From an uncultured Gammaproteobacteria bacterium (GTDB taxonomy: Bacteria; Patescibacteriota; Patescibacteriia; CAZVIU01): DNA of 36,290 nt. Numbering within the stretch: the stretch's first letter is position 1; the number at the start of each line of letters is the position of its first letter. The translations under genes and the position numbers were made by a program. This document shows, piece after piece, positions 3,169 to 23,567 of this stretch. The stretch is taken from contig CAZVIU010000003.1 of the NCBI GenBank assembly GCA_964626935.1, positions 1 through 36,290 of the forward strand. The letters run 5' to 3'. Below the pieces are notes generated by a model. That model ran no database searches and was not told the DNA's origin. It saw only the letters and a list, made by a program, of their open reading frames with translations.

Positions 3169-3180
3169 CAGCTGTTTTTA

Positions 3181-3386: not shown

Positions 3387-3392
3387 AGCTAT

Positions 3393-5828: not shown

Positions 5829-5831
5829 TTT

Positions 5832-8054
5832 ATGTCTTTAGAAAAAGTGTGTTTTAAAATTTTGCGTCTTGGTGTTTATGCGAGCCTGGTCGCGCCTTTT
5901 TTTGTATTTCCGTGGACAATTTATCCGTATCTTTATGCCAAGGCATTATACATTAATATTATTGTAGCTGTAATGCTGCCATTTTACGTAGTTTTATTAA
6001 CCACAAATCCGGATTTTCGACCTAAAAAAAATCCCCCAACTATTGCCGTAATAGCATTTTTTCTTATCTTAATAGTTTCTAGTATTTTTAGTCCTGATCC
6101 GGGGCGGGCTTTTTGGGGAACACAAGAAAGATCAGCCGGACTATTTTTTCTGGCGCATTACTTCTTATTATTTTTAATCGCCAGCTCTATTTTTCGTAAC
6201 GAGGAGAGCTGGAAGAAACTTTTAATATTTTCTCTTTTTATAAGCATACTTGTCGCTGGCGGAACTTGGTGGGATATTGCCATGGAAAAAATCTGGAAGC
6301 CCGGAGCAGGGACAAGAACTGGCGGCACCTTGTCTAACCCTATTTTTTATGCCGCCTATCTCTTATTTCACATCCCCCCATCCCTTTGGTTAAGTTTCTC
6401 GGGTCGTAAAAAGGCGCATAAAATTGCTTGGCTGGCCGTTTTTATTTTTCTTAGTATTTCTTTGTTTTATACGCTTACTCGTGGCGCCCTACTTGGTTAC
6501 TTTGGTATGTTTTTCTTTGGTTTAATTTTAACTGGCTTATGTGTACAGAGATACCGAAAATGGATGTTTTTAGCTTCTAGTTTGATAGTAGTTTTTTTTG
6601 CCTTGATTTTTTTATTACGAACCAACCCGGTAATTTTAAAAAATCCGATATTAGGACGCCTCGCTTCGATTTCGCCCAAAGAAATAACCGCCCTAACCCG
6701 GCTAGAAGCTTGGCAAATTGCTTGGTATGGCTTTAAAGAAAAACCGATTTTAGGCTGGGGGCCGGAAAATTATTACGCTATTTTTAATAAATTTTATAAT
6801 CCAAAACTCTTGCGTTTTTCATATTATGAAACCTGGTCTGATAAACCGCACAGCATTGTTTTTGAAATTTTATCAACAACTGGTTTTTTGGGTCTAGCGG
6901 CTTATCTTGCGATCTATGGGTTGATCCTTGCTCATGGTTTTAAAAAATTGCGTAAAAAAACCATATCGGCAAAATTAACCATTCCGCTTTTAATGATTTT
7001 TGTCGGGTTTTTTATACAAAATCTTTTTGGTATTGATACAGTGAGTACCTACCTGATGTTTTATATCTTATTGGCTTTTGCCGGGTTTATTTTATATCCT
7101 ACAAATACTATAAGTCCCGTGAGTTTTGTAAGATCCGTAAACCCGATAGGAAATGTAAAACGTCCGGTAATTCTTGCCGGTATTGCAACAAGCATTCTTT
7201 CTCTTGTTTCAATCTGGCAATGGAACATCAAACCTGCTTACGCAGGCCATCTTACAGCCAAAGCAACAACCGTGGAGAATTTTGGTGCGGCTACGGATCT
7301 TTGGCAAAAAGCGTTAGATATTAAACATCCGTGGGCTTACGATGCCCAAGTTGAATACTTAAAAGGCATCACGAGAATAGTTCAGCGATCAGCAAATACG
7401 CAGTTTGAAGACTTAAAACCACTTCTCTTGCGCGGCGAGATGGCGGCAGAAGACCTAACAGCCAGTCACAAGCAAAATGCCTATTTTAATTATTTAGCCG
7501 GTAGATTTTATAGTGAATGGGGCAAGTTTGAATTTAAATATTTTGTTGAAGCAGAAAAATTATTTAAAAAATCTATTGAATTGAGCCCGCGTCGTCAGCA
7601 GCTTTTTTATGGTTTGGGTAGAATGTATTTGCTTTCCGGAAGAACTGACCAATCCTTAAAAGTATTTGAAGATTTAGTTAAGCTTGATCCCGGGGTTGAT
7701 GAATCTCACTGGTTTTATGGTTTGGCCCTGCGTCAAGCTGATCGCGGAGTCCAAGCCTACGAAGAGATAAAAGAGGCCATTCGTTTAGGATACAATGCGG
7801 TTGATTCAGGAGAGGTATTAGTTTTAGCCGAAGTAGCCACAAAAGAAAATGACCTCAAGGCGCTTCAAAAAATTTATGAAAACGCGATTGCCATTGATCC
7901 TAAGAATGGTGATTGGCACGCCCGGTTGGCGGCGTTGTATTTAGAATTGGGAAGAAAGGATGAGGCGCGCAAATTAGTTATCAGGGCAGTAGAGTTGGAC
8001 CCGACGCTTAAAGAAGAAGCAACCAAATTTTTGAAATTATTAGAAATTCAGTAG
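5832..8054 (+). CDS. Wzy_C (O-antigen-ligase family) membrane protein with C-terminal TPR domain, paralog 2
   Basis: Motifs are SPDPGRAFWGTQERSAG, TRGALLG and ILGWGPENYYAIFNKFYNPKLLRFSYYETWSDKPHSIVFEIL, with about 10-12 hydrophobic helices. TPR motifs are ELSPRRQQLFYGLGRMYLLSGR and DPKNGDWHARLAALYLELGRKDEARKLVIRAVELDP. ATG 5832 is preferred over the track's TTG 5820. Confidence 0.85.
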   Translation: MSLEKVCFKILRLGVYASLVAPFFVFPWTIYPYLYAKALYINIIVAVMLPFYVVLLTTNPDFRPKKNPPTIAVIAFFLILIVSSIFSPDPGRAFWGTQERSAGLFFLAHYFLLFLIASSIFRNEESWKKLLIFSLFISILVAGGTWWDIAMEKIWKPGAGTRTGGTLSNPIFYAAYLLFHIPPSLWLSFSGRKKAHKIAWLAVFIFLSISLFYTLTRGALLGYFGMFFFGLILTGLCVQRYRKWMFLASSLIVVFFALIFLLRTNPVILKNPILGRLASISPKEITALTRLEAWQIAWYGFKEKPILGWGPENYYAIFNKFYNPKLLRFSYYETWSDKPHSIVFEILSTTGFLGLAAYLAIYGLILAHGFKKLRKKTISAKLTIPLLMIFVGFFIQNLFGIDTVSTYLMFYILLAFAGFILYPTNTISPVSFVRSVNPIGNVKRPVILAGIATSILSLVSIWQWNIKPAYAGHLTAKATTVENFGAATDLWQKALDIKHPWAYDAQVEYLKGITRIVQRSANTQFEDLKPLLLRGEMAAEDLTASHKQNAYFNYLAGRFYSEWGKFEFKYFVEAEKLFKKSIELSPRRQQLFYGLGRMYLLSGRTDQSLKVFEDLVKLDPGVDESHWFYGLALRQADRGVQAYEEIKEAIRLGYNAVDSGEVLVLAEVATKENDLKALQKIYENAIAIDPKNGDWHARLAALYLELGRKDEARKLVIRAVELDPTLKEEATKFLKLLEIQ

Positions 8055-8160
8055 AAATTAGTTAGAAATTAAATAGAAATTAAGTATAAATAAATAGAAA
8101 TTAGCTCGCTCACGCTCGCGAAATTAGGTTACAACCTAATTTCTACTTAATTTCTACTTC
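8041..8160. repeat. Composite spacer element: phased TAGAAATT direct repeats, central hairpin, inverted AATTTCTA repeats
   Basis: TAGAAATT lies at 8041, 8052, 8063, 8074 and 8095 (11-nt phase, with degenerate TATAAATA at 8085). The hairpin AAATTAGGTT-AC-AACCTAATTT is at 8121-8142. AATTTCTA lies at 8138 and 8149. The array overlaps the paralog-2 stop codon TAG at 8052-8054. Confidence 0.85.
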
Positions 8161-8186
8161 GTTTCGTGAAGCTAATTTTTTTATTT

Positions 8187-10430
8187 ATGTTGGAAACCCG
8201 TCTCTTGCGATCAATTAAGATTTTATTGTACGCGGTACTTTTTGCTCCAGCCGTAGTAACTTACTCAACTGCTTATCCTTTTTTACATGGCAAGGTTTTC
8301 TGGATTGAGATATTCATAGAATTGCTGCTCGGTTTGTACTTAGTTTTAGTTTTAACCAGCAAAGATTATTGGCCAAAGAAAACGCCGCTTTTTTGGGCTA
8401 TGAGCGCGTTTATAGGCTCACTTGTTATTTCAACGATTTTTTCAGTTGATCGATCAATCAGTTTCTGGGGTGATTGGTCCCGTATGACCGGGCTTATTCT
8501 TTATCTACATCTTTTTGCATTTTTCATCATTTTTTCATCAGTTATAAAAAAAGATTATGAGCGACGCAACTATTTGATATTTTTTAGCTTACTCGGCACG
8601 GTTCTATCTATATTCGCCTGGATTCAAAGATACAATACAAAATTTTTAAAAGCAGTTTGGGTGGGTGGCCGTGTCGGTAGCACCATAGATAATCCGGCCT
8701 TTTTCGCGATTTTTTTAATATTCATAATTTTCATCAATCTCTGGTTAGCTTCTGTTGTTAGTAAAAAATACCGATTATTATTTTTTCTAAGCGCAATTTT
8801 TAATTTTCTAACCGTTTTTATTACCCAAACTAGAGGTGTTATTTTGGGTCTTTTTGCCGGAATGGCCATCTTTGCTTTTTTTAGAGTTATTAAGAGCACG
8901 CTTAAGTGGAAAATAGGCTTGGCAATATTTTTGGCATTGATCTTTGCCGCATTTATTTTTAAACCAACATATAATATTTTAACGCGCGCGCCTGGCCTTG
9001 GCAGAGTCTTAGAAAGTACCCTAATAGACTCCACCGCACAAACACGCCTCTTAACCTGGAAAATAGCAACGCGTGCCTGGCTCGCGCGACCAATTACTGG
9101 CTGGGGACACGAAGCCTTTTATGCGGCATTTAATAAATTCTATAAACCGGAATTTGTTCGTTTTTCTTTTTCTGAAACCTGGTTTGATAAAAGCCATAAT
9201 ATTTTTTTAGACCTTTTGTCAATGAACGGGCTCTTGGGTTTTTTTAGCTATATTTCTATTTTTATTTTTGGTTATATTGTAATAAGTCGAAGCAAAAAGT
9301 TGCCGATGGATTCGACGAGCTCGCCACAAGTGGTTACACAAAATAATGCATATATTAACAAATCACTAGTGCCACTTTATATCTCGCTAATTACGACCTA
9401 TTTCGTTGGAAATTTTTTTGAGTTTGATACGCCGGCCTCGCTTTTAGCCATATTTTTTATATTTGCCCTGATTTATTCATATAGCAACACAAATGATGCG
9501 AATGAGGCACGTTTGACGCCAGCGCAAATTGGGCGGCCAATACAGCCGTCAGTTGTCGCCCTCATCATTATAATTATCAGCATATTGTTATGGTTTGTGC
9601 CGATTAAAAGCGTTATTGCTTCCCGCGGTCTTGATCGCGCCAGTGACCTAATAAGAAATAATTTTGCCCAAGGCGCCAGCGCTTATCGCGAAATAATTGT
9701 AAAAAATAGGCGTTTTTCCGAGCCAGCAGCTCTGGAATACGCCATGCGCCTAAATCAGCTTTTATTAACTGATGACGAGGCCGTAATTAAATATAAAAAC
9801 GACTTTGATTTGACCATGAATAAACTTGAGGATAGCGCGAGGCGCCATAAATTTGATGTAAATTACGTTCTGGCCTATAGTCTTTTAGCCAATACCAGAG
9901 CCACAATGGAAACTGATTTTGCCAAAAAGGCTGAAAAATTATTAGAAGAAAATCGCTTGATGATTAATCCAGGTCGTCAGCAGGTTCTTCTCATGCTTGG
10001 AGAGACAAAACTATTATTAGACAAAAACGATGAAGCGATAAATATTTTAAAACAAGCGCAAGACTTGGCGCCAACTGCCCGTGAAATTAGTTATCGACTA
10101 GCCATTGTTTATTTTGCTAGTGGACTTGAAGAAGAAGGATTCGCGCAACTTAAGAAAGCCAAAATTTTAGGCATGGCTGATATCGGCGCGCAGCCGCTCT
10201 TAGTTTTAATAAGTGTAAACGCTTCCAGGGGTAATTGGGTAAAAGTCGCGGAACTTTACGAAAAATCTGTTAAGCTTGAGCCGAATAATGCCAAACTCTT
10301 TGCCCAAATGGCCACAGCTTATGCTACAATCGGGAATAAGAAACGAGCCCGAGAAGCTGTGGCGCGCGCTGTAGAACTTGACCCGAAATTGAAAGGAGAA
10401 GGAGAACAATTTTTAAGACAAGTTAAATAA
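8187..10430 (+). CDS. Wzy_C (O-antigen-ligase family) membrane protein with C-terminal TPR domain, paralog 3
   Basis: Motifs are SVDRSISFWGDWSRMTG, TRGVILG and ITGWGHEAFYAAFNKFYKPEFVRFSFSETWFDKSHNIFLDLL. The TPR motif is LEPNNAKLFAQMATAYATIGNKKRAREAVARAVELDP. ATG 8187 (MLETRLLRSIKILLYAV) aligns with the paralog N-termini. The track starts at GTG 8166. Confidence 0.85.
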   Translation: MLETRLLRSIKILLYAVLFAPAVVTYSTAYPFLHGKVFWIEIFIELLLGLYLVLVLTSKDYWPKKTPLFWAMSAFIGSLVISTIFSVDRSISFWGDWSRMTGLILYLHLFAFFIIFSSVIKKDYERRNYLIFFSLLGTVLSIFAWIQRYNTKFLKAVWVGGRVGSTIDNPAFFAIFLIFIIFINLWLASVVSKKYRLLFFLSAIFNFLTVFITQTRGVILGLFAGMAIFAFFRVIKSTLKWKIGLAIFLALIFAAFIFKPTYNILTRAPGLGRVLESTLIDSTAQTRLLTWKIATRAWLARPITGWGHEAFYAAFNKFYKPEFVRFSFSETWFDKSHNIFLDLLSMNGLLGFFSYISIFIFGYIVISRSKKLPMDSTSSPQVVTQNNAYINKSLVPLYISLITTYFVGNFFEFDTPASLLAIFFIFALIYSYSNTNDANEARLTPAQIGRPIQPSVVALIIIIISILLWFVPIKSVIASRGLDRASDLIRNNFAQGASAYREIIVKNRRFSEPAALEYAMRLNQLLLTDDEAVIKYKNDFDLTMNKLEDSARRHKFDVNYVLAYSLLANTRATMETDFAKKAEKLLEENRLMINPGRQQVLLMLGETKLLLDKNDEAINILKQAQDLAPTAREISYRLAIVYFASGLEEEGFAQLKKAKILGMADIGAQPLLVLISVNASRGNWVKVAELYEKSVKLEPNNAKLFAQMATAYATIGNKKRAREAVARAVELDPKLKGEGEQFLRQVK

Positions 10431-10440
10431 AAACTTAATT

Positions 10441-10553
10441 GAAATTCGGTGGAAATTTGATAGAAATTATCCCCATCTAAATCCTCCCCCTGCGATACAG
10501 GGGGAGGAAGTAGGAGAGGGTTAATTTCAACTGAATTTCGCGCAGTGAATTTC
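10441..10553. repeat. Composite spacer element: phased GAAATT repeats, GC hairpin, inverted AATTTC repeats
   Basis: GAAATT lies at 10441, 10452 and 10463 (11-nt phase). The hairpin CCTCCCCCTG-CGATA-CAGGGGGAGG is at 10483-10507. AATTTC lies at 10523, 10534 and 10548. The architecture matches 8041-8160. Confidence 0.85.
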
Positions 10554-10569
10554 TATTGAATCTCCGACA

Positions 10570-12786
10570 GTGAGTACCGAAAAACTATCAAAATATCTTT
10601 ACAGATTCATAGTTATTGGTCTGTATGCGGCATTACTCATGCCCTTTATTTATATTGATAATCTTATTTTTCCATTTATCACCGGAAAGGTTTTTATTTT
10701 TCAAATTTTGATTGAAGTCTTATTGGCAGCTTGTTTGCTCCTGATTTATTTAGACAGAAGTTTCCTGCCTAAACAGAGCCTTGTTCTCATCTCGGTTTTT
10801 TTATTTTTAATAAGCATAATTTTATCAACAATTTTTTCATATGACCCTGATCGCAGTTTCTGGGGTAATTATGAACGAATGAGCGGAACATTCACACTTC
10901 TGCATTTTGTCGCTTATTTTTTCATACTCGTTGGTATTTTACGCACGCCGCTTACCTGGAAACGGTATCTTACAGCCGCTGTAGCGCTCTCCGGAGTACA
11001 GGCGGTTATTGGTATAGCGCAATACTATTCTACGAATTTACTTTTAACAGCTGGTGGCGGAAGAATTTGGGGCACGCTGGGTAATTATATCTATTTAGCT
11101 ACTTATGCGATTTTTCACATTTTTATTGGCGCGATGCTTTTGGCGGAAGCAGGCAACAAATCGCCATCCAGTAAGAGCAAGTGGTCAAGGGTGGTTTTTG
11201 GCGGATTGATCTTCTTAAATGTGGTTGTGCTTTATCTCTCGGGCACGCGAGGCGGATATGTTGGTTTTTTATCAGGCTTGAGTTTGGTTGCTATTATTTC
11301 TGTTTTTGTAGCCAAAAATAAGAAAGTAAAATTAATTTTTATCAGCGCCCTCATTCTGGTAATTCTCTTCATGGTTATGGGGCGTGTTTATCGCAGCACT
11401 AAATTTGCGCGGAGCCTTCCCATTGTTGGGCCGCTTTTAAATTTAGACATTAAAGCCGATACTGGTTTTACTCGTTTGATCGGTTGGCAATTAGCCCTAA
11501 AGGGTTGGCAAGATAAACCAATTTTCGGTTGGGGACCAGAAAATTACTATTACGCCTTTAATAAGCATTTCGATCCTAGATCACTTGAAAGAGGGTATTA
11601 TGAAACTTGGTTTGATCGGCCGCACAATATAGTCTTTGATGTTTTATCTACCCAAGGGTTAGTCGGGCTCTTAACTTATCTAAGTATTTTTGTAAGTATT
11701 TTTATAGTTTCTTGGCGCGCTTGGCGACAAAAAATAATTTTAGGGTGGCAATTTGCCCTGTCCTTAGGGGGCGTGGGAGCATACTTTACACAAAATCTTT
11801 TCGTTTTTGATCAGCCAAGTTCTTTTCTTTTATTTTATTTGTTTATTGCTTATTTTCATTCATTGGCTGACGGAGAGCGTAAAAGTATTGAGATGGTTAA
11901 AAACGAGAATCAGAAACGTTCAAGCATTTATTTGGCGATTTTATTGGGGGTAGGGGTTTTGTGGCTGGGATATCAAAGCGTCCTAAAGCCATGGAAAGCC
12001 GGGGTTACCTCTATTGCGGCTGAAAGACTACTCACGACTGATTTTAATCAAGCTTTTGCTATATACCGGCGTGCCACCGAAATAGAAACACCATATAAAG
12101 ATGATATACAGGTTAGTTTAGCCAGAATCGTGCATGAGCGAGCCGGAACTGACGCGATCTTTATTCGCGATAATAAAGAAAAAATAGATTTTACCGTGAG
12201 CGAAGTTAAAAAATTCATTGAAATTCACCCTAACGATGTTTATCCATATATGGCCCTGGCGCAACTCTACGGACTTTTAGCCATTATTGATCCACAATAT
12301 TTTGCGCCGGCTGAAGAAGCCCTTGCCAGGGCCGCGCTTCTCTCGCCAAAACGGCAGCAGATCTATTTTGTCTGGGCCAGGTTTAAGGTCATGCAAAAAG
12401 ACTACACGCAAGCTCACGAGCTAATACAAAAAACCATAGATTTCGATCCTCAAGTTTCAGAAACTTATTGGTATCAAGCGTTAATTTATAATTCCGAAGC
12501 CAATGATGCTAAGGCCTTAGAATACATGAAAGAAGCAAGAAAAAGAGGTTATGGGTGGAAAAATACCACGGAAGCATTTTTATTCGGCAGATTGCTCGAG
12601 ATAAACAAAGATTATGATCAAATACCGCAAGTTTTAAAAGAGATCATTAGCTTAGATTCTAAGGCGGAAAACTATTATTATCTAGCCACTGCTTATCAGC
12701 GCTTGGGGAAAAACGAAGAAGCTCAAAGAGCGCTGGGAAAAGCAGTGGAGACGGACCCAAATATTTTACAAAAAATGCAAAAGTGA
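10570..12786 (+). CDS. Wzy_C (O-antigen-ligase family) membrane protein with C-terminal TPR domain, paralog 4
   Basis: Motifs are SYDPDRSFWGNYERMSG, TRGGYVG and IFGWGPENYYYAFNKHFDPRSLERGYYETWFDRPHNIVFDVL. TPR motifs are LLSPKRQQIYFVWARF, ETYWYQALIY and AENYYYLATAYQRLGKNEEAQRALGKAVETDP. The start is GTG. Confidence 0.85.
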   Translation: MSTEKLSKYLYRFIVIGLYAALLMPFIYIDNLIFPFITGKVFIFQILIEVLLAACLLLIYLDRSFLPKQSLVLISVFLFLISIILSTIFSYDPDRSFWGNYERMSGTFTLLHFVAYFFILVGILRTPLTWKRYLTAAVALSGVQAVIGIAQYYSTNLLLTAGGGRIWGTLGNYIYLATYAIFHIFIGAMLLAEAGNKSPSSKSKWSRVVFGGLIFLNVVVLYLSGTRGGYVGFLSGLSLVAIISVFVAKNKKVKLIFISALILVILFMVMGRVYRSTKFARSLPIVGPLLNLDIKADTGFTRLIGWQLALKGWQDKPIFGWGPENYYYAFNKHFDPRSLERGYYETWFDRPHNIVFDVLSTQGLVGLLTYLSIFVSIFIVSWRAWRQKIILGWQFALSLGGVGAYFTQNLFVFDQPSSFLLFYLFIAYFHSLADGERKSIEMVKNENQKRSSIYLAILLGVGVLWLGYQSVLKPWKAGVTSIAAERLLTTDFNQAFAIYRRATEIETPYKDDIQVSLARIVHERAGTDAIFIRDNKEKIDFTVSEVKKFIEIHPNDVYPYMALAQLYGLLAIIDPQYFAPAEEALARAALLSPKRQQIYFVWARFKVMQKDYTQAHELIQKTIDFDPQVSETYWYQALIYNSEANDAKALEYMKEARKRGYGWKNTTEAFLFGRLLEINKDYDQIPQVLKEIISLDSKAENYYYLATAYQRLGKNEEAQRALGKAVETDPNILQKMQK

Positions 12787-12856: not shown

Positions 12857-14014
12857 TTAATATTTGTATAGCTTAACCGTTTTTATAAGCATTTTGTCAA
12901 AGTTGAATTTTTCTTGGAATTGCCTCGCGGTAGCGTGGCTTAAATTGTTGCGTAACTCTTGATTATCAATAAATTTTTTAAGAGCATTTACAATTGCCCT
13001 TGAATCAGCTGGCGGCACTAAAAGGCCGCTTGTTTCATTTTCTAACATTTCTGGTATGGCGCCCACATTTGTCGCTATAATTGGCACACCGGCTTGTATA
13101 GCTTCAAGCAAGGCATAAGGCAGACCCTCTTTTACCGAAGGGAGCACAAAGAGGTCAAAGGCCTTTAGATAGCGAGCTGCATCAGGCAGGGAGCCGATAA
13201 GATAAAAATTTTGCAATCCATAATTCTTAATTCTTAATTCTAAATTCTCGCGTTCTGGGCCAGAACCGATAATGATGAAACTTGGTTCGACCCCTTCTTT
13301 CTTAAGTACGGCTGCTGCATCAATGAGATATTCAATACCCTTGGTTTTATAAAGATTGGCGATGGTGATAATCCACAGCGGGGAATTAAGAATTGAGAAT
13401 TTAGAATTAAGCTTTGCACGCGCCTCATCGCGTGAAAGAAAACTAATTGGATTGATGCCGTGGGGGATTATGGCAAGTTTTTCCTGATCGCAGATTTTAT
13501 TTTTTAGCGCGGCGGCATAATCATATTGAGAGAGCGTAATTATTCTATCGTGAATTTTGCCAGCAACGCGCTCCATAAATACATATAGTTTTTTGCGCCA
13601 CCAAGGCAGAGGTTCGTTAAAAACCCAGCCGTGGGCAGTGTAAATTAATTTAGGTTTTAGGTTGTAGGTTGTAGGTTGTAGGAATTTTTTAGCCACTGTG
13701 CTGATGAGGCTGGCTTTGGAGCTATTTAGATGGACGATGCTGGGCTGCTCCTTTTTAAAAAATTGTGCTAGCTCAAAAATTGCCGCGATATCTTTAAGCG
13801 GATTAATTTCACGGACGAGATTTTTAAAAGTATGCGTATTAATATCCGCTTCTTTGCATTTTTGTATCAATTCCTGACTACCCTCCGCGCCAGATGCAAC
13901 AGTAATATCAAACTCATCTTTTAAGGCAGTTGCCAAATCAAAAACATAGGCTTGCGCGCCACCCCATTCGCCTTGAGTTACCACATAAATTAGCTTTAAT
14001 TTTGCTGGTTGCAT
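12857..14014 (-). CDS. GT4-family (GT-B) glycosyltransferase
   Basis: The N-terminus is KLIYVVTQGEWGGAQAYVFDLA. The C-terminal donor-binding motif is FVLPSVKEGLPYALLEAIQAGVPIIATNVGAIPEMLENETSGLLVPP (EX7E). Confidence 0.9.
   Translation of the reverse strand: MQPAKLKLIYVVTQGEWGGAQAYVFDLATALKDEFDITVASGAEGSQELIQKCKEADINTHTFKNLVREINPLKDIAAIFELAQFFKKEQPSIVHLNSSKASLISTVAKKFLQPTTYNLKPKLIYTAHGWVFNEPLPWWRKKLYVFMERVAGKIHDRIITLSQYDYAAALKNKICDQEKLAIIPHGINPISFLSRDEARAKLNSKFSILNSPLWIITIANLYKTKGIEYLIDAAAVLKKEGVEPSFIIIGSGPERENLELRIKNYGLQNFYLIGSLPDAARYLKAFDLFVLPSVKEGLPYALLEAIQAGVPIIATNVGAIPEMLENETSGLLVPPADSRAIVNALKKFIDNQELRNNLSHATARQFQEKFNFDKMLIKTVKLYKY
13221..13248. repeat. Heptamer array TAATTCT x4 inside GT4 CDS
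   Basis: TAATTCT TAATTCT TAATTCT AAATTCT is read on the minus strand as ENLELRIKNY. Confidence 0.9.
13383..13411. repeat. Heptamer array GAATTAA x4, inverted partner of 13221-13248, inside the same CDS
   Basis: GAATTAA GAATTGA GAATTTA GAATTAA G is read on the minus strand as KLNSKFSILNS. It lies 134 nt from the inverted array. Confidence 0.9.
13651..13682. repeat. Heptamer array TAGGTTK x4.6 inside GT4 CDS
   Basis: TAGGTTT TAGGTTG TAGGTTG TAGGTTG TAGG is read on the minus strand as QPTTYNLKPK. Confidence 0.9.
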
Positions 14015-15139: not shown

Positions 15140-15220
15140 TAATTAAGTCATTGGTCACTAAGTCATTGAGACAATTTTAAATGACTGTTAATTACTTAAT
15201 TACTTAATTACTTAATGACT
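15140..15220. repeat. Inverted octamer arrays spanning the spacer between SDR and GT4 genes
   Basis: The left arm is TAATTAAGTCATT..CTAAGTCATT. The right arm is AAATGACT GTTAATTA CTTAATTA CTTAATTA CTTAATGA. CTTAATTA is the reverse complement of TAATTAAG. The element begins right after the stop codon at 15137-15139, and ATG 15215 lies in its last unit. Confidence 0.85.
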
Positions 15221-16495
15221 CGAGTTGTAATCTTCAGCACCTTCTACGAGCCCTTTATGTCTGGGGCCGAACGAATGGTTAAAGAAGTAGTAGAGCGGTT
15301 GCAAGAGCGCTATTCGTTTATAATTGTTACTTCTCGTTTAAGACGCAATTTGCCCCAGTTTGTTGAGGTCGAACATCGACGCACTTTGCAGCGAGCAGGA
15401 GCGAGCGAAAGAAGGAGGTTCGACCTCGATGACAGTCGAATTAAAATTGTGCGGATCGGTTTTGGTTGGAAATTTGATAAATTTTTGTATCCAATTCTCG
15501 CGCCGTTTTACGCATTAAGATATAGGCCGAAGATTGTTCACGCGATAATGGAGAGCTACGCGGGAATCGCGCTTTTAGTTTATTCGTATCTCGCCAAACT
15601 TTCAAAACCCTTAATTCTTAATTCTCAATTCTTAATTCTAACCTTACGGCGGAGATCGAATCTCGACGCACTCTGCAGCGAGCAGGAGCGAGCGAAAGAA
15701 GGAGATTCGATCTCGCATAAAAATGTATTCACCATTCTAACACTCCAGAGCGGTGACCTTGACCTACCAGAAAAACAGGCGCGGATTCCTAGGTGGCTTT
15801 GGAAGCGAATACATTGTGCGCCCAATCTCATAGTTTCTATTGGAAATTCAATGGCCGAGCGTGCAAGAAAGTTGGGAGCAAAGAGTGTTCGAGTTATTCC
15901 CAACGGTGTTAATCTTACGGAGGTCCGACCTCCAAATATACGGAGGTCGGACCTCCGTCAACATCATATTGTATGTGTTGCCCGTCTTTCTCCTGAAAAG
16001 GGAATTGAATATCTAATCGAAGCAATGCCCTTCGTAATAGCGCAATACCCTGATGCCGAGCTGGTTTTGGTGGGAAATGGCGCATTGAGAGAAAAGCTAC
16101 AAGCTACAAGCTACAAGCTACAAGCTCATGTTGAGTTTAGAGGCACGTTATCTCATGAGAAAACTCTTGAAGAAATGGCCACCTCTGATATTCTCGTTTT
16201 GCCATCTTTAGCCGAGGGCATGGGCATTGTGTTAGTCGAAGCTCAAGCGCTCGGCGTTCCAGTAATCGGTACTAATGTTGGCGGTATTCCAGATGTTATT
16301 GAGCACGAAAGAACAGGCCTGCTCGTGCCGCCACATGACCCGCGCGCAATCGCGCAAGCAGTCATTCGCTTATTTCATGATCACGAACTAAGAGAACGCA
16401 TGGTTGTTGAAGCGGAAACGCGTCTTCTTAAATTTGATTGGCAGAAGATCGCGGAAGAATATAGGAACATTTATGATCAGGTATCAAGCGTATAA
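15215..16495 (+). CDS. GT4-family glycosyltransferase carrying five in-frame repeat insertions
   Basis: The C-terminal motif is ILVLPSLAEGMGIVLVEAQALGVPVIGTNVGGIPDVIEHERTGLLVPP, and ARLSPEKGIEYLIEA is present. The N-domain is interrupted by repeat-encoded segments (see repeats at 15365, 15611, 15652, 15917 and 16094). Confidence 0.85.
   Translation: MTRVVIFSTFYEPFMSGAERMVKEVVERLQERYSFIIVTSRLRRNLPQFVEVEHRRTLQRAGASERRRFDLDDSRIKIVRIGFGWKFDKFLYPILAPFYALRYRPKIVHAIMESYAGIALLVYSYLAKLSKPLILNSQFLILTLRRRSNLDALCSEQERAKEGDSISHKNVFTILTLQSGDLDLPEKQARIPRWLWKRIHCAPNLIVSIGNSMAERARKLGAKSVRVIPNGVNLTEVRPPNIRRSDLRQHHIVCVARLSPEKGIEYLIEAMPFVIAQYPDAELVLVGNGALREKLQATSYKLQAHVEFRGTLSHEKTLEEMATSDILVLPSLAEGMGIVLVEAQALGVPVIGTNVGGIPDVIEHERTGLLVPPHDPRAIAQAVIRLFHDHELRERMVVEAETRLLKFDWQKIAEEYRNIYDQVSSV
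15365..15427 (+). repeat. 63-nt hairpin element, copy 1 (GAGGTCGAAC-N43-GTTCGACCTC)
   Basis: It has a 10-bp perfect stem and is translated EVEHRRTLQRAGASERRRFDL, with element position 1 at codon position 1. Confidence 0.9.
15611..15640 (+). repeat. Heptamer array TTAATTC x4.3 inside CDS
   Basis: TTAATTC TTAATTC TCAATTC TTAATTC TA is translated LILNSQFLIL. Confidence 0.9.
15652..15714 (+). repeat. 63-nt hairpin element, copy 2 (GAGATCGAAT-N43-ATTCGATCTC)
   Basis: The core CGACGCACTYTGCAGCGAGCAGGAGCGAGCGAAAGAAGGAG matches copy 1, which differs at one position within it (the Y). It is read in a different frame, as RRSNLDALCSEQERAKEGDSIS. Confidence 0.9.
15917..15957 (+). repeat. Two adjacent copies of palindrome ACGGAGGTCSGACCTCC inside CDS
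   Basis: Copies lie at 15917-15933 and 15940-15957 and are translated TEVRPPNIRRSDLR. The arms resemble the stem of the 63-nt element. Confidence 0.9.
16094..16127 (+). repeat. Heptamer array (AAGCTAC)x4 perfect plus a partial unit, inside CDS
   Basis: This is a direct read, translated KLQATSYKLQA. Confidence 0.95.
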
Positions 16496-16572: not shown

Positions 16573-17880
16573 ATGAAGATTTTAATAGCAACAGGAATTT
16601 ATGGAGGTTTGGGAGATATAGGTGGCCCGGCAATATATTCAGAGTCTCTTGCGCGAGAGTTGATTAAGCGCGGGCACAAAGTGACCGTTGTTACTTATTC
16701 TAGTTCATATAAATCCGAAATCCGAAATCCTCCGCCAAAGGCGGATCAGTCTCTGACTGAGAAATCCGAAACAAATCCGAAATCAGAAATTCAAAACTCT
16801 AATTTTTTATTAGTACGAGTTCAACGCGAATTACCACTGCTATTGCGGTATAGTTTTTATAAATTGACAGCACTCTGGCACGGATGGCACGCAGATATCA
16901 TATACGCTCAAGATTCAGTTTCTGCAGGATTTCCTACAATGTTGGCTAATCTAATTTTGCGAAAACCATTTATTTTGAAAGTTATTGGCGATTATGCGTG
17001 GGAGCAGTATCAAAATCAAAAATCAAAAATCAAAAATCAAAAATTAGGTATGTTGCCAAGCAGTATTGATCATAATGGTTTGTCGCTAGACGATTTTTTA
17101 AATGAAAAACCCAGTGGCAAGATTAAGGCTTTTTGGAATATTGAAAGATGGGTGGCAAGACGCGCCAACAAGATTATTGTGCCGAGCAATTATCTAAGAG
17201 GCGTGGTGCAGAAGTGGGGGATTCAATCAGCCAAGATTGAGGTGATTTATAATTCTTTTGACTGGAGCTCATTACAAAACTCGATCTCTAAAGTTCCGGT
17301 CGAGACCCCAGAGGCCACACCGCATGATACTATCTATTCAGTCGGTCGTCTTGTTCCGTGGAAAGGATTTGATACGTTGATTGAAATAATGCCCGAGGCA
17401 TTGAAAGAAAAACCAAATACAGAGCTCGTGATCTACGGCGATGGACCGATGCGTGAAGGTTTAAGATTTAAGATTAAAGATTTAGGATTAGAGACTCATG
17501 TGAAACTTTTGGGAAGAATAGATCACGCGAAGCTCTTGGAAGCCTTGCAGGGTGAGCGCAAGTTTTTTGTGCTTAACAGTTCGTACGAAGGTATGTCTCA
17601 TCAAATTTTAGAGTGTCAGGCTTTGAAAATTCCTTGCGCGGTTAGCCGCGTCGGCGGAAATCCGGAAATTGTGGAGAACGAAAAAACTGGTTTGCTTTTT
17701 GAATATAATAATAAAGAACAGATCAAAAACGCAATCATACGACTGCTTGACGAGCAAGCACTCGTCGAACATATAAGAGAAAAAGCCTATGCACAGATTA
17801 AAGATCGGCACGATTTTAATCAAATGATTGAAAAAACGATAACCGTACTCCAATCCACACTATCATACTATATAGTATGA
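16573..17880 (+). CDS. GT4-family glycosyltransferase carrying in-frame repeat insertions
   Basis: The N-terminus is KILIATGIYGGLGDIGGPAIYSESLARELIKRGHKVTVVT. GRLVPWKGFDTLIE is present. The C-terminal motif is FVLNSSYEGMSHQILECQALKIPCAVSRVGGNPEIVENEKTGLLFE. Confidence 0.88.
   Translation: MKILIATGIYGGLGDIGGPAIYSESLARELIKRGHKVTVVTYSSSYKSEIRNPPPKADQSLTEKSETNPKSEIQNSNFLLVRVQRELPLLLRYSFYKLTALWHGWHADIIYAQDSVSAGFPTMLANLILRKPFILKVIGDYAWEQYQNQKSKIKNQKLGMLPSSIDHNGLSLDDFLNEKPSGKIKAFWNIERWVARRANKIIVPSNYLRGVVQKWGIQSAKIEVIYNSFDWSSLQNSISKVPVETPEATPHDTIYSVGRLVPWKGFDTLIEIMPEALKEKPNTELVIYGDGPMREGLRFKIKDLGLETHVKLLGRIDHAKLLEALQGERKFFVLNSSYEGMSHQILECQALKIPCAVSRVGGNPEIVENEKTGLLFEYNNKEQIKNAIIRLLDEQALVEHIREKAYAQIKDRHDFNQMIEKTITVLQSTLSYYIV
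16711..16800 (+). repeat. 90-nt composite module: AAATCCG array, two hairpins, AAATCNG array; exactly 30 codons
   Basis: AAATCCG AAATCCG AAATCCT is followed by TCCGCC-AAA-GGCGGA, then TCAGTC-TCT-GACTGA, then AAATCCG..AAATCCG AAATCAG AAATTCA AAACTCT. It is translated KSEIRNPPPKADQSLTEKSETNPKSEIQNS. Confidence 0.9.
17011..17044 (+). repeat. Heptamer array (CAAAAAT)x4 perfect, preceded by CAAAAT, inside CDS
   Basis: This is a direct read, translated QNQKSKIKNQK. Confidence 0.95.
17460..17494 (+). repeat. Degenerate heptamer array TTTAAGA x5 inside CDS
   Basis: TTTAAGA TTTAAGA TTAAAGA TTTAGGA TTAGAGA is translated LRFKIKDLGLE. Confidence 0.8.
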
Positions 17881-17887: not shown

Positions 17888-17926
17888 AGGTTCAGTTAGA
17901 TTGTCGCTGTTTCTACGGTGATAACT

Positions 17927-19153
17927 ATGCGGGTTTTAATAATAAGTCTTGATCAATCAATCCTAGATCCGGCGTCAGAAGCGCGAAGCAGGATGTTGGA
18001 ATATGCGGCGCTCGCAGATGGTTTATATGTTTTTGTATTTGCGAAACGCGGATCTACACGCGGATCTTCTCGCGCGGATCTACACGCGGATCAGAATTTA
18101 TTTATATATAGATTCAGTGCAAGCACTGTCGGTTGGATTAAGGCGTTATTTTTCGGTAGACGACTCGTGCGCGAAAAACAAATTGATGTAGTAAGTTCGC
18201 AGGATCCCTTTGAAACCGGCCTACTCGGATATCTAATTGTTAAATTGATGCACTTTCATACTATAAAGTATGAAAGTGCCAGTACAGTAGGTTTGAATGT
18301 GCAGTTGCACGGGGACTTTTATGGAAATCCATATTGGCGAATTGAACAATTATTGAATCGGTTGCGGTGGCATCTTGGATTATTTGTTATGCGTCGCGCT
18401 GGCAGCATTCGTGTTGTTAGCGAAAGAATAAAACAAAGCTTAGAAGCAAGAATTAAGAATCAAGAATTAAGGATTATCAAGGCTCCTATTTATACGGACA
18501 TAGAATTTTTTCGTACTGCCAAACCGATTTTCAACTTGAAAGAAAAGTATCCACAATTCAATTTTATAATTATCACCGTTGCTAATCTTGTGCCTGTTAA
18601 AAACTTAGAATTTCTTATTAACGCGATGAAAAAGCTGCATGAAATTTTAACCAATGCCGGATTGGTGATCGTCGGTGATGGTCCACTCCACAAAAAGCTA
18701 AAAGCTAAAAGCTACAAGCTACAAGCTAACAATTACATTATTTTTGAGGGTACGCAAAAAGGTTTAGTTTCATATTATAAAGGTGCTGATTGCTTGGCGC
18801 TTGTTTCCAAGTACGAGGGTTGGGGCAGGGTAGTGGTGGAGGCCGTCGCTAGCGGTTTGCCCATTGTGATGAGTGATGTTGGGTTAGCGGGAGAATTGAT
18901 TAGGGACGAAGAGAGCGGTCTTGTTGTGCTGAAGCGAAACTTCGACCAATGGAAGTTTCGCTTCGATCAGAACGCCGAAGATGACCTAGTTCGCGCGCTT
19001 TCACAAGTCTATTTTAACGAAAATTTAAGAAAAAAATTGATTGCTGGCGCGACAAATGCCTTGCAGCAGTTACCCTTAAAACAAGAAACACTAGAGTTGA
19101 TTAAAAAGTCGTGGGAGCTTGCAACGCGTAAAAGCAACGGTATTCACGATTAA
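17927..19153 (+). CDS. GT4-family glycosyltransferase carrying five in-frame repeat insertions
   Basis: MRVLIISLDQSILDPASEARSRMLEYA is the N-terminus. The C-terminal motif is LALVSKYEGWGRVVVEAVASGLPIVMSDVGLAGELIRDEESGLVV. ATG 17927 is preferred over GTG 17918. Confidence 0.85.
   Translation: MRVLIISLDQSILDPASEARSRMLEYAALADGLYVFVFAKRGSTRGSSRADLHADQNLFIYRFSASTVGWIKALFFGRRLVREKQIDVVSSQDPFETGLLGYLIVKLMHFHTIKYESASTVGLNVQLHGDFYGNPYWRIEQLLNRLRWHLGLFVMRRAGSIRVVSERIKQSLEARIKNQELRIIKAPIYTDIEFFRTAKPIFNLKEKYPQFNFIIITVANLVPVKNLEFLINAMKKLHEILTNAGLVIVGDGPLHKKLKAKSYKLQANNYIIFEGTQKGLVSYYKGADCLALVSKYEGWGRVVVEAVASGLPIVMSDVGLAGELIRDEESGLVVLKRNFDQWKFRFDQNAEDDLVRALSQVYFNENLRKKLIAGATNALQQLPLKQETLELIKKSWELATRKSNGIHD
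18047..18092 (+). repeat. Four copies of CGCGGATCT spaced 12/14/12 nt inside CDS
   Basis: CGCGGATCTACA CGCGGATCTTCTCG CGCGGATCTACA CGCGGATC is translated RGSTRGSSRADLHAD. The first two copies are read as R-G-S and the last two as A-D-L. Confidence 0.9.
18250..18279 (+). repeat. Hairpin GCACTTTCATACT-ATAA-AGTATGAAAGTGC inside CDS
   Basis: It has a perfect 13-bp stem and is translated MHFHTIKYESA. It shares the TCATACTAT..AGTATGA core with the palindrome at 17856-17887. Confidence 0.9.
18448..18475 (+). repeat. Heptamer array AAGAATT x4 inside CDS (same family as 13383 and 15611)
   Basis: AAGAATT AAGAATC AAGAATT AAGGATT is translated RIKNQELRI. Confidence 0.9.
18695..18729 (+). repeat. Heptamer array AAGCTAM x5 inside CDS
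   Basis: AAGCTAA AAGCTAA AAGCTAC AAGCTAC AAGCTAA is translated KLKAKSYKLQAN. The family and protein position match 16094-16127. Confidence 0.95.
18931..18964 (+). repeat. Hairpin GAAGCGAAACTTC-N8-GAAGTTTCGCTTC inside CDS
   Basis: It has a perfect 13-bp stem and is translated KRNFDQWKFRF. It shares the GAAGCG/CGCTTC core with the REP-like family at 3181-4211. Confidence 0.9.
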
Positions 19154-22538: not shown

Positions 22539-23567
22539 ATGGAACTTTTGATTATTACTCAGAAAGTTGATTTAGTCGATCCAATACTCGGCTTTTTTCA
22601 TCGTTGGATTGAAAAATTTGCGCATCACTTTGAGAGAGTAGAAGTTATCGCGTTGGAAGTTAGAGAACATAATCTACCAGCAAATGTTTCAGTGCATTCC
22701 TTGGGAAAAGAAAAAGGTTATGGAAGATTGCATCGTGCTATATTCTATATTCTGTATTCTATATTCTTGCGATATGACGCGGTTTTTGTTCACATGAACC
22801 CAGAATATCTCGCTCTTTTCGGTTGGTACTGGAAATTGATGGGCAAACGCACAGCGCTATGGTACACGCATAAATCAGTAACCTGGTGGTTATGCTTGGC
22901 GGAGAAATTTGCTGATAAGATTTTTACCGCATCGCGCGAAAGTTTTCGCTTGCCGAGCAGAAAGGTTGAGATTATTGGACATGGGATAGAGATGGAACTT
23001 TTCATAAGAACACAAGAACACAAGAACACAAGAACAAATTTACGATTATTATCGGTCGGAAGAATAGCATCCAGTAAAGACTTGGAGACGATTATTCGCG
23101 CAGCTCAAAAATTATCTAACGACGGTATACAGGTTACGCTTGATATTGTTGGAGCGCCTGTAATGGGTGCTGATTTTGAATATGAGAAAGCACTGCATGA
23201 GACTATTAAAAATCTAAACCCTGAAGACGTCATTAAATTTTTAGGTCCGAAGAATTATGAAGGAATGCCCAAGATTTATGGTGAACACGATTTATTGATT
23301 CATACATCCAAAACAGGAAGTGTTGATAAAGTCGTTCTTGAAGCGCTCGCCTGTGGCACGCCAGTAATAAGTTCAAGCGAGGCATTCCACGATCTTCCAG
23401 AATATCTGCGGTTTAAGGAAAATGATGTAGAAGATTTGGCCAGTAAAATAATTAATTTCACGCAAGTCAAACCAGACATATCAAAATTGACTGAATTAGT
23501 TCGTAGCCAAAGCAATCTCGACACACTAATTAAAAAAATATCCAATTTTCTAAATTCTGCATTCTAA
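22539..23567 (+). CDS. Glycosyltransferase (GT-B/GT4-like, short form)
   Basis: Motifs are LLIITQKVDLVDPILGFFHRWIEKFA, LSVGRIASSKDLETIIRAA and LLIHTSKTGSVDKVVLEALACGTPVISSS. The stop codon lies inside a heptamer array. Confidence 0.8.
   Translation: MELLIITQKVDLVDPILGFFHRWIEKFAHHFERVEVIALEVREHNLPANVSVHSLGKEKGYGRLHRAIFYILYSIFLRYDAVFVHMNPEYLALFGWYWKLMGKRTALWYTHKSVTWWLCLAEKFADKIFTASRESFRLPSRKVEIIGHGIEMELFIRTQEHKNTRTNLRLLSVGRIASSKDLETIIRAAQKLSNDGIQVTLDIVGAPVMGADFEYEKALHETIKNLNPEDVIKFLGPKNYEGMPKIYGEHDLLIHTSKTGSVDKVVLEALACGTPVISSSEAFHDLPEYLRFKENDVEDLASKIINFTQVKPDISKLTELVRSQSNLDTLIKKISNFLNSAF
22738..22767 (+). repeat. Heptamer array CTATATT x4 inside CDS
   Basis: CTATATT CTATATT CTGTATT CTATATT is translated AIFYILYSIF. 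Confidence 0.85.
23006..23037 (+). repeat. Octamer array (AAGAACAC)x3 plus AAGAACAA inside CDS
   Basis: This is a direct read, translated RTQEHKNTRT. The family matches 4901 and 31355. Confidence 0.95.

Follow-up and report, generated by a model that had tools for sequence, protein, structure and literature searches.

The window, which is the whole 36,290-nt stretch of DNA analysed here, consists almost wholly of glycan-synthesis genes, and it shows a ten-fold excess of perfect hairpins along with 52 tandem-repeat rows. Genome G+C content is about 40-43%, so the "AT-rich genome" of an earlier, sequence-only reading of this DNA is better described as merely moderately AT-rich. In one gene of the window, which encodes a GT4 glycosyltransferase, there are three in-frame hairpin inserts, and two tandem arrays of a 7-nt unit are in frame as well. 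The features of this gene, together with one related module elsewhere in the window, are listed below; L001 is the contig that carries the closest orthologue.

15215..16495, + strand: GT4 glycosyltransferase host gene, intact ORF (Pfam Glycos_transf_1, 2.5e-43)
15365..15427, + strand: copy 1 (c1), 63 nt, residues 51-71, EVEHRRTLQRAGASERRRFDL; 76.6 bits (covariance model R1)
15365-15377, + strand: c1 outer stem, 5' arm
15378-15390, + strand: c1 5' joining region
15391-15406, + strand: c1 apical module, GCGAGC-AGGA-GCGAGC
15407-15414, + strand: c1 3' joining region
15415-15427, + strand: c1 outer stem, 3' arm
15610..15639, + strand: 7-nt tandem array immediately upstream of c2 (CTTAATT, 4.3 units); peptide LILNSQFLIL
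15635..15646, + strand: left 12-nt imperfect direct repeat flanking the c2 insertion, ATTCTAACCTTA; encodes ILTL
15647..15651, + strand: 5 extra nt (CGGCG) inserted with c2, outside the family consensus (DNA alignment of window and L001)
15652..15714, + strand: copy 2 (c2), 63 nt, reads RSNLDALCSEQERAKEGDSIS; 78.2 bits (covariance model R1)
15715..15733, + strand: 19 extra nt inserted with c2, GCATAAAAATGTATTCACC (DNA alignment of window and L001)
15734..15745, + strand: right direct repeat, ATTCTAACACTC; 9/12 identical to the left repeat, first 8 nt identical
15917..15958, + strand: short form (hp3), 42 nt, arms ACGGAGGTCCGACCTCC/GGAGGTCGGACCTCCGT, 8-nt loop; 30.7 bits
8104..8119, - strand: free-standing apical module, GCGAGC-GTGA-GCGAGC, in an intergenic spacer and nested in 11-nt repeats

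The host protein is 426 aa long, compared to about 368 aa in its homologues. A total of 457 homologues were found, mostly of 361-385 aa, and they belong to Patescibacteria wherever they are named; from these names the host bacterium is judged to be a member of that group. The host protein retains all 56 alignment positions at which 58 homologues are invariant. In the AlphaFold2 model (mean pLDDT 88.6), confidence exceeds 90 outside residues 51-70 and 131-170, save for a few blocks of 78-89, and falls to 50-61 in the first of these stretches (c1) and to 52-54 in the second (c2). As such, the inserts are predicted to be low-confidence stretches in an otherwise confident fold, and the gene appears to be functional. 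A pseudogene host, which the sequence-only reading had raised as an objection to itself, was rejected because the ORF and every conserved residue are intact.

Copies c1 and c2 lie where they were originally placed, at 63 nt each, and are identical at 57/63 positions. The window holds exactly two occurrences of their 41-nt core (expected 0, from 100 shuffles), and this core is restricted to these two copies; the rest of the family has the ends alone in common. Stem 1 (GAGGTCGAAC/GTTCGACCTC) and stem 2 (GAGATCGAAT/ATTCGATCTC) were described correctly, except that the supposed 10-bp helix of c2 is really 13 bp long. The outer stem of c2 (GAGATCGAATCTC/GAGATTCGATCTC) carries its G>A and C>T changes at each of the four symmetric positions. 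Two doubly compensated stem pairs are thus real, but they are not independent, as each stem arm is itself a mini-palindrome and one change has been repeated at four symmetric positions. The reported reading phases also hold, c1 being read from codon position 1 of the ORF and c2 one base out. Since the two copies are 90% identical as DNA and yet encode unrelated peptides, conservation must lie at the nucleotide level. Fold stability is high on both strands (z = -3.0 to -3.8). The peptides encoded by the inserts include TLQRAGASER and SNLDALCSEQER.

Much had been made of the absence of stop codons from all six frames of c1, and this is correct for c1 and likewise for c2. Only 54 of the 36,227 63-mers in the window (0.15%) are open in six frames, forming four stretches, namely c1, c2 and two ordinary coding sequences; mononucleotide shuffles of c1 and c2 are open in 0.5-1.2% of cases. 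The openness follows in part from composition, since all six stop triplets, as read on the + strand, require T and the element holds just 8-9 T. Furthermore, it is not a family-wide trait, as the sequence-only reading would have it for a selfish element, because other copies contain stops in two frames (L006) and three frames (L009), and the conserved ends are the only portion of the family that is open in all six.

The sequence-only reading would have been undermined by a lack of further copies, but five more were found, in other genes and in one intergenic spacer. The family comprises seven full copies and one short form (hp3), five of the full copies coming from metagenome contigs. The source metagenomes number five (Ga0137829, Ga0114944, Ga0212128, Ga0185320 and ERZ27245644). 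A metagenome scan with the 21-nt 5' end matched 12 loci, of which the true copies are L006, L009, L015 (two copies, L015a and L015b) and the window's own gene in L010; 8/12 loci are chance matches in contigs of 45-64% G+C. At one rejected locus (L013), 27 nt of the 5' half matched and the 3' half is absent (14.5 bits, E 0.13). The L001 contig carries a 75-nt copy. The lengths of the full copies are 63, 63, 75, 69, 69, 69 and 54 nt and, including the 42 nt of hp3, all are multiples of three. Full copies score 58-88 bits under covariance model R1, which was built from these same copies, and their opposite strands 21-33 bits, giving the element a clear strand polarity.

Five or six of the seven full copies are genic, besides hp3, with four in sense and two in antisense orientation, and three of six frames are in use (+0, +1, -0); these counts are tiny, and several copies probably come from a single population. 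Frame +0 is used by c1, +1 by c2 and L001, and probably +1 by L006. The L009 copy is antisense within a GT4 gene, where it reads EVEPPSFSPDQNQGLQSASRFDL, and L015b is antisense within a FemAB-family gene. The intergenic L015a stands right behind a stop codon, between convergent genes. The further host genes are another GT4, a probable GT2 and a FemAB-family gene. Exact protein look-ups re-found the loci in other samples at 100% identity, and copies other than c1 and c2 were reproduced in three to five samples. The L006 contig ends 11 nt past its copy, and L027 joins foreign sequence of 68% G+C at the edge of the element.

Several wider searches were negative. An exact-pattern scan of 185,579 species-representative genomes with GAGRTCGAAYNTCGAYGCACT did not recover the family, and its three Paenibacillus matches were discarded as chance, having no hairpin. 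In IMG/VR viral contigs, the 5' end matched nowhere and the 3' end five times, in each case by chance and with no partner arm. Model R1 detected no additional copies in about 200 kb of DNA, and a concatenated six-frame peptide query returned no match at E <= 10. Similarly, PDB sequence searches with the L009 and L015 host proteins produced alignments that fell outside the insert regions.

The element has a strict architecture. From 5' to 3', the first half consists of a GAGGT-CGA-ACCTC mini-palindrome, GAYGCAC, a TCY half-helix, GCA and the apical hairpin; the second half consists of GAA, an RGA half-helix, AG and an inverted mini-palindrome, GAGGT-TCG-ACCTC. Each mini-palindrome is 13 nt long, with a 5-bp stem and a 3-nt loop (unit GAGGTCGAACCTC), and GAYGCAC, GCA/GAA and AG are conserved and unpaired. 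The arms are self-palindromic in 15/16 cases, and the outer arms also pair with each other over 13 bp, so two folds are possible, with the mini-palindromes paired together as a long rod or each folded alone. A three-helix rod is the minimum-free-energy structure in four copies with unrelated apical sequences. The apical hairpin, of 16-28 nt, is exchangeable and its sequence is particular to each subfamily; four of the five unrelated apical modules are near-perfect inverted repeats, while that of c1 and c2 is a GCGAGC direct repeat that pairs only with two central G.A mismatches. A search for the apical module of c1 and c2 gave 3 matches against 0.2 expected, and the free-standing copy of this module at 8104..8119 suggests that the apical hairpins are separable.

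The covariation that the sequence-only reading expected is present in this larger alignment. Paired cells amount to 98.2%, two-sided pair changes number 4, where shuffles give 1.0 (2/500) and slid controls 0-1, and the third pair of the short 3-bp helix covaries (T-A in 4 copies, C-G in 2). However, compensation alone is no proof of selection on structure, because template-switch correction of quasi-palindromes would yield the same compensated pattern. The conserved part amounts to 47 nt and is almost the same in organisms that share only 72% identity in their orthologous proteins.

Comparison with the closest orthologue (L001/P0001, 72% identical), which carries neither c1 nor c2, indicates what was gained at each site. 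Copy c1 adds exactly 63 nt, or 21 codons. At c2, the whole insertion in the DNA alignment is 99 nt, or 33 codons, and L001 has a single ATTCTTACCTTG where the window has the flanking direct repeat. This duplication of 12 nt is imperfect and set 5 and 19 nt off the element, and no flanking target duplication is present at c1, L001, L006, L009 or L015a. The tandem array at 15610..15639 is older than c2, since a related stretch exists in the orthologue. The short hp3, whose fold is stable (-37.7 kcal/mol, z -10.4), occupies the site of the full 75-nt copy in L001; the interiors are 8 and 49 nt, respectively, and the arms of hp3 depart from the consensus at pair 7 (GC>CG) and pair 8 (AT>GC), both changes being doubly compensated.

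A number of known systems resemble this element in part. REPINs combine conserved ends with a spacer that varies yet forms a hairpin, and compensatory changes are frequent in them (Bertels and Rainey, 2011, PMC3116915). Here too, the conserved ends are an inverted pair of short palindromic units, the spacer is less conserved yet forms a hairpin, compensatory changes are common, and the long rod and singly folded units provide two folds. The size is comparable (54-75 nt here, 71 bp between 16-mers in the Pseudomonas fluorescens GI REPIN), and there is no obvious target duplication at c1. In contrast, REPINs are extragenic whereas most copies here are inside ORFs, REPINs come with a RAYT gene whereas none was found in the about 60 kb scanned, and the mini-palindromes described here are much shorter than usual REPs.

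Rickettsia palindromic elements (RPEs) insert in frame (Ogata et al., 2000, 2002; reviewed in PMC10969869 and PMC1779305). The likeness extends to palindromic repeats in frame in unrelated functional genes of a reduced-genome bacterium, and also between genes, to copies at orthologous sites that persist across species, and to inserts that are compatible with the host fold. However, RPEs are 100-150 bp long with one conserved peptide per family, whereas the present copies are 54-75 nt long, use at least three frames (c1, c2 and L009 differ) and encode unrelated peptides; moreover, the host is of a different phylum, a Patescibacteria bacterium instead of one of the Rickettsiales, the comparison being with RPEs as described. 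Intragenic REP dimers are another precedent, encoding 20-30 aa, and the GTAG/CGTC-tagged REPs are, in the portion of that source drawn on here, likewise short stem-loop repeats within known genes of several phyla that interrupt orthologous genes at the same site (Di Nocera et al., 2013, PMC3733652). Those families are defined there by a terminal tetranucleotide, which is partly present here: if the complementary strand is read, the second mini-palindrome is immediately adjoined by CGTC in three of the seven copies (c1, c2 and L006) and by CATC in the other four (L001, L009, L015a and L015b), and GTAG is absent. The phyla that the same portion mentions do not include Patescibacteria (PMC3733652).

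More distant systems were also considered. Integron attC sites share conserved inverted end boxes, extrahelical or unpaired conserved bases and a variable central part that must fold, and they act as folded single strands. The attC box consensus is RYYYAAC / GTTRRRY, and the arms GTCGAAC / GTTCGAC are each one position off it. However, attC sites separate whole gene cassettes beside an integrase gene, whereas the present elements lie inside conserved ORFs; no integrase domain or cassette array was found in the window, and no integrase domain in the related contigs scanned. An attC identity was rejected on the deviating boxes, the intra-ORF location and the lack of an integrase domain. In a formal sense the 13-nt arms qualify as terminal inverted repeats, but a DDE-type MITE was rejected as there is no fixed-length target-site duplication. 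The GC-rich "byp" insertions of Magnusiomyces mitochondria and the T4 gene 60 hop are skipped by ribosomes. Like the present elements, they are G+C-rich, hairpin-forming insertions in the coding sequence of a more A+T-rich genome, but they break the frame or hold stops. Here each genic copy has a length divisible by three and no stop in the frame in which it is read, so that plain translation suffices, and an intron or translational bypass was therefore dropped as unnecessary. Finally, a tRNA T-arm origin of GGTTCGA was dropped owing to the wrong loop length.

The best reading of these data is an element that is built like a REPIN, behaves like an RPE and is tolerated in frame. With moderate confidence, we propose that c1 and c2 represent one subfamily of a non-autonomous palindromic repeat spreading at the DNA level in a Patescibacteria population. 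We infer mobility as such, as well as the mechanism. The folded single strand could be recognised by a trans-acting enzyme, for which our working guess is a RAYT- or IS200-like HUH/Y1 transposase; the conserved unpaired bases would then serve as its recognition or cleavage site. Genic copies would persist only where their length is a multiple of 3 nt, the frame used is free of stops and the insertion falls in a permissive loop, and the host protein would gain a hydrophilic, probably disordered loop of 18-25 aa. Stem symmetry may be kept partly by template-switch correction between the arms. No transposase domain (Y1_Tnp or other) was detected in the scanned ORFs of the 36-kb window and of about 25 kb from the related contigs L006, L009 and L015, and the DNA examined contained neither a parent IS with the same termini nor excision or insertion intermediates. 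The concentration of three elements in a single gene of 1.3 kb, with the remaining 35 kb free of them, is also unlike random transposition. Simple copy-and-decay gives no explanation for apical hairpins that are wholly different between copies, and the retention of 47 nt despite 72% protein identity could mean a host-level function over recent spread.

Such a function would arise if the elements were binding or recombination sites in cell-surface polysaccharide genes, serving rearrangement, pausing or diversification and kept by host selection. The unpaired bases and covarying stems are near-identical although the proteins have diverged, the orthologous hp3 site has kept an element with a doubly compensated outer stem while its interior went from 49 to 8 nt, and the three elements are clustered within one gene. 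The hosts are also mostly envelope genes (GT4, GT4, GT2, FemAB) in or near glycan loci, but this enrichment is a sampling effect of a window made up almost entirely of glycan-synthesis genes. Given that the copies sit in unrelated host genes, at sites that are likewise unrelated and do not correspond in position, that an orthologue does without c1 and c2 and that no partner protein is known, we regard host benefit as unlikely. It is quite unlikely, too, that the element is not a decaying selfish repeat but a structured nucleic-acid site of modular build that has a specific partner. Here the unpaired bases would be the site of a putative CPR ssDNA/RNA enzyme and the apical hairpin a swappable cargo or address module, the latter because one module is free-standing at 8104-8119. 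If true, this would be a new kind of mobile or recombination system, a hairpin within a hairpin, by which surface-glycan enzymes are given short variable loops.

A structured RNA within the transcript, whether a cis-regulatory hairpin, an RNase processing or stability site or a small ribozyme, was the alternative offered by the sequence-only reading. Conserved unpaired nucleotides, covarying helices and a freely varying apical hairpin are the pattern of a functional RNA, the stems are stable as RNA (-24 to -44 kcal/mol), and the location of L015a directly behind a stop codon, with convergent genes on either side, would suit such a role. However, two of the six or seven genic copies are antisense despite the strand polarity, so that the mRNA there carries the complement with other unpaired sequence, and a function at the mRNA level is unlikely for copies in both orientations. 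Positions relative to starts and stops are not fixed, and lengths in multiples of three with an open used frame are what plain translation would lead one to expect. Rfam 15 gave 0 matches over the window at the gathering score; at E <= 10, hits within 15300-16000 were far sub-threshold (three or four miRNA-precursor models on hp3 and two lncRNA-region models elsewhere), and no family counts as a match even at this cut-off. A known ribozyme or riboswitch was dropped on these grounds, and an RNA role in general is distinctly unlikely.

Local duplication alone is improbable to the same degree. According to this explanation, the older element at the hp3 site gave rise to c2 (and c1) inside this one gene, through segmental duplication or template switching and with no dedicated mobility system, and the other copies are similar local products. 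Copies c1 and c2 are mutually closest relatives 287 nt apart and the sole pair with a common apical module, the 24 extra nt and flanking 12-nt duplication at c2 are as in microhomology-mediated copying, and the surplus of perfect hairpins and tandem repeats points to slippage-prone replication. Nevertheless, copies with these 47 conserved nt are spread over four or more separate contigs, where their genes are unrelated, and a second organism has them too; dispersal on this scale exceeds local duplication. An assembly artefact or chance similarity is scarcely credible: contigs do break or turn chimeric at the element (L006, L027), but the region with c1 and c2 recurs at 100% identity over a 3,685-nt overlap in an independent JGI contig (L010), other copies recur in three to five samples, the chance expectation of the core is 0, and the ORF is open through every insert.

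To summarize, in-frame "protein-coding palindromes" have hitherto been treated as near-peculiar to Rickettsia, and the in-frame copies described here in a Patescibacteria bacterium make for a second lineage with a similar habit; no earlier report of such repeats in this group was found in the literature. Patescibacteria genomes are very small, and the habit may recur wherever genomes are reduced and gene-dense. There are also practical implications for annotation, in that proteins of this lineage carry inserts of 18-33 aa of non-protein origin and contigs break or become chimeric at these repeats. Provided that a complete genome reveals the partner enzyme, the strict architecture of the element would offer a small system for the study of REPIN-like recognition and palindrome symmetry.

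The sequence-only observation, that one gene carries a hairpin element twice, is confirmed. The two 63-nt copies, c1 and c2, are identical at 57/63 positions, the 41-nt core they share is found at just these two places in the window (0 expected, 100 shuffles), and both are reproduced at 100% identity in the independent JGI contig L010. Translation of ORF 15215-16495 bears out that they are read in two frames, c1 from codon position 1, giving EVEHRRTLQRAGASERRRFDL, and c2 offset relative to c1, giving RSNLDALCSEQERAKEGDSIS. Both fold better than shuffled sequence on either strand (z -3.0 to -3.8). Furthermore, copies beyond these two, which had been anticipated, were found on four other contigs. 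A metagenome scan with the 21-nt 5' end recovered real copies in L006, L009 and L015 and the window's own gene in L010, and another copy lies on L001, the contig of the closest orthologue. In genome_contigs the same query gave nothing but chance matches, and scans of viral contigs returned no real copy.

Copies of the element and a related module, with orientation and frame relative to the host ORF
c1: window 15365-15427, 63 nt, sense, frame +0
c2: window 15652-15714, 63 nt, sense, frame +1
L001 copy: 2737-2811, 75 nt, sense, frame +1
L006 copy: 7301-7369, minus strand, 69 nt, probably sense, frame +1
L009 copy: 4704-4772, plus strand, 69 nt, antisense in a different GT4 gene (EVEPPSFSPDQNQGLQSASRFDL), frame -0
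L015a: L015:1004-1072, plus strand, 69 nt, intergenic between two convergent genes, immediately past a stop codon, no frame
L015b, degenerate: L015:3567-3620, plus strand, 54 nt, antisense in a FemAB-family gene, frame -0
Free-standing GCGAGC-GTGA-GCGAGC: window 8104-8119, matches the apical module of c1 and c2

Copy lengths (63, 63, 75, 69, 69, 69 and 54 nt) and that of hp3, a 42-nt short-form relative at 15917-15958 in the gene that holds c1 and c2, are all multiples of 3. All copies have a 13-bp outer stem (GAGGTCGAACCTC / GAGGTTCGACCTC), a conserved 7-nt bulge (GAYGCAC) and a 3-bp helix (TCY/RGA), as well as a 3x3 internal loop (GCA/GAA), an apical hairpin and a 2-nt bulge (AG). The apical hairpins, of 16, 22, 22, 22 or 28 nt, are unrelated in sequence between subfamilies and form a near-perfect palindrome in four of them; that of c1 and c2 is a direct repeat, GCGAGC-AGGA-GCGAGC, whose pairing requires two central G.A mismatches. 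Both outer arms are mini-palindromes in their own right (GAGGT-NNN-ACCTC), and because of this the two compensated stem changes first read from c2 are present but amount to one change, GAGGT to GAGAT, at four symmetric positions. A 27-nt match to the 5' half of the element (GAGGTCGAACTTCGACGCACTCCGCAG), without the 3' half, occurs on the minus strand of the metagenome contig L013 (1025-1052; 58% G+C); it scores 14.5 bits (E 0.13) with R1, a covariance model built from known family copies, and is a chance match or else half an element carried by an unrelated organism.

Covariation was computed on a model-based alignment of seven copies, in which 98.2% of 112 cells are standard pairs. The covariation expected of a larger alignment is there, with 4/16 pairs changed on both sides compared to a mean of 1.0 in shuffles (four reached in 2/500) and 0-1 in slid controls, and the signal is consistent despite a small sample and a model-fitted alignment that leans towards structure. 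Four copies have T-A as the third pair of the short helix, and two have C-G. The outer stem of hp3 adds two further double changes (pair 7 GC to CG, pair 8 AT to GC).

The L001 orthologue has neither c1 nor c2 and holds a full copy at the exact site of hp3, where either an ancestral copy shed its interior, the stem being kept by double compensations, or the loop was hit twice. The c2 insertion is 99 nt long and consists of the 63-nt element with 5 nt before and 19 nt after it, 24 nt of extra sequence in all. An imperfect direct repeat of 12 nt brackets this insertion (15635-15646, 15734-15745); no duplication flanks c1 in the DNA alignment of the window with L001.

The host gene encodes a GT4 glycosyltransferase (Glycos_transf_1, 2.5e-43) within 36 kb composed almost entirely of glycan-synthesis genes. 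Its protein has 426 aa, compared to mostly 361-385 aa in homologues (Patescibacteria wherever the source is named), and alignment with these shows the extra length to be insertion: c1 adds exactly 21 codons, and comparison with P0001, the closest orthologue (72% identity, contig L001), shows that the c2 region adds 33. The AlphaFold2 model has a mean pLDDT of 88.6, and confidence is low in just two stretches, residues 51-70, which correspond to c1, and residues 131-170, which correspond to a 7-nt tandem array together with c2. All 56 columns invariant across 58 homologues are kept, and five separate length changes (three hairpins, two tandem arrays) all preserve the frame, which points to a gene under selection and not to the pseudogene that had been considered.

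The alternative offered by the sequence-only reading was a cis-regulatory or processing structure in the mRNA. The element has a clear polarity, scoring 58-88 bits on its own strand versus 21-33 on the opposite one (R1), and therefore the antisense copies in L009 and L015b place a different sequence in the mRNA, which argues against a function at that level. Openness in six frames, noted for c1, holds for c2 too but is not general: the L006 copy has stops in two frames and the L009 copy in three, while the conserved ends have none in any of the six. In the window, 0.15% of 63-mers are this open, in four stretches, namely c1, c2 and two of ordinary coding sequence; for mononucleotide-shuffled c1 and c2 the figure is 0.5-1.2%. 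Since every stop triplet on both strands requires a T on the plus strand and the element has just 8-9, base composition accounts for part of the openness.

The window is itself an entire contig recorded at NCBI/ENA. The L006, L009 and L015 loci recur at 100% identity across an overlapping set of five samples, form part of NCBI/ENA contigs of 23.4, 24.1 and 14.9 kb, and carry 7-nt motifs of the window. They may well belong with the window to one genome, in which case about 100 kb would hold five full copies, with four different apical modules between them, plus a degenerate copy and a short form, or some 50-60 copies per megabase were this density genome-wide. Assemblies apparently break or turn chimeric at the element. 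The L006 contig ends 11 nt beyond it (7370-7380), and on contig L027 the sequence upstream of an L006-type copy (2582-2700) has 68% G+C, foreign to this 40%-G+C organism.

Small repeats are unusually abundant in the window genome. A count of perfect inverted repeats with a stem of at least 10 bp and a loop of 3-60 nt gave 26, of which 12 lie inside ORFs; first-order Markov simulations averaged 2.5 and reached at most 6. The module at 8104-8119 and the apical module of L015a (GGTCCGAC...GTCGGACC), whose core is that of the hp3 arms, hint that small hairpins nest within larger ones. Tandem Repeats Finder returned 52 rows, with periods mostly of 7-8 nt and many within genes.

Several other repeats were observed. 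A second, G+C-rich hairpin family (GGGCCCGAAGCGC...GCGCTTCGGGCCC, up to 81% G+C; 3179-3250, 3313-3387, 3640-3708, 4176-4213) has about seven copies, which lie within the Wzy_C-like ORF 3306-5744 or upstream of it, several of them inside the reading frame. This ORF is the fourth with Wzy_C, beside three tandem paralogues at 5820-12786 (about 740 aa, O-antigen-ligase-like Wzy_C domain, C-terminal TPR repeats), whose spacers (8030-8165, 10428-10573) contain 11-nt tandem repeats (GAAATTAGNNN) as large inverted repeats, the first centred on the 8104-8119 module. Within GT4 ORF 17918-19153, a 34-nt hairpin at 18931-18964 (GAAGCGAAACTTC-GACCAATG-GAAGTTTCGCTTC), translated as ...LKRNFDQWKFRFDQ..., has mini-palindromic arms (GAAG-CGAAA-CTTC), a design like that of hp3 in a different sequence. 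Homopolymer-rich palindromes between genes (CCCCCCCGATGTACATCGGGGGGG; TCCTCCCCCTGCGATACAGGGGGAGGA; window 3137-3160 and 10482-10508, L001 4019-4061) may be terminators or another repeat class. Dozens of short arrays of 7- or 8-nt units (AATTCTT, AAGCTAC, AAAATCA, CAAGAGAA and TGTTTTCA among them) lie inside ORFs, at 13221-13248, 13383-13411, 15610-15639, 16094-16126, 17012-17044, 18448-18476, 18693-18729, 22738-22767 and elsewhere, and are reminiscent of the STRR heptamer repeats known from heterocystous cyanobacteria. Their translations include IKNQELRI, SYKLQA and SKIKNQK, and array motifs of the window also appear in L006, L009 and L015 proteins; the AAGCTAC arrays of two GT4 paralogues (16094, 18693) and of the L001 orthologue are found at equivalent positions.

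Of the readings weighed, a selfish element is the best supported and is somewhat favoured here, although the six-frame openness cited for it holds across the family only for the conserved ends. Like REPINs, REP doublets that form hairpins (PMC3116915), the element has conserved ends made of two small palindromes in inverted orientation and a variable spacer able to form a hairpin; compensatory changes are frequent, and two different folds are available to it. Its in-gene habit resembles that of Rickettsia palindromic elements (RPEs; PMC10969869; PMC1779305) and of intragenic REP dimers, which encode 20-30 aa (PMC3733652). Unlike REPINs, it is not mainly extragenic; the REP-type CGTC tag is present in 3/7 copies, and no RAYT (REP-associated transposase) gene was found in the approximately 60 kb scanned. 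Unlike RPEs, it is much shorter and has no conserved peptide. A full-text search of the Patescibacteria/Candidate Phyla Radiation literature, incomplete in coverage and thus absence of evidence only, returned no description of such elements. A trans-acting enzyme might recognise the folded single strand, and template-switch correction could help to maintain arm symmetry. As the features that define REPINs and RPEs are only partly shared, the element, which works like both, is best described as a separate new family of broadly this type and a member of neither.
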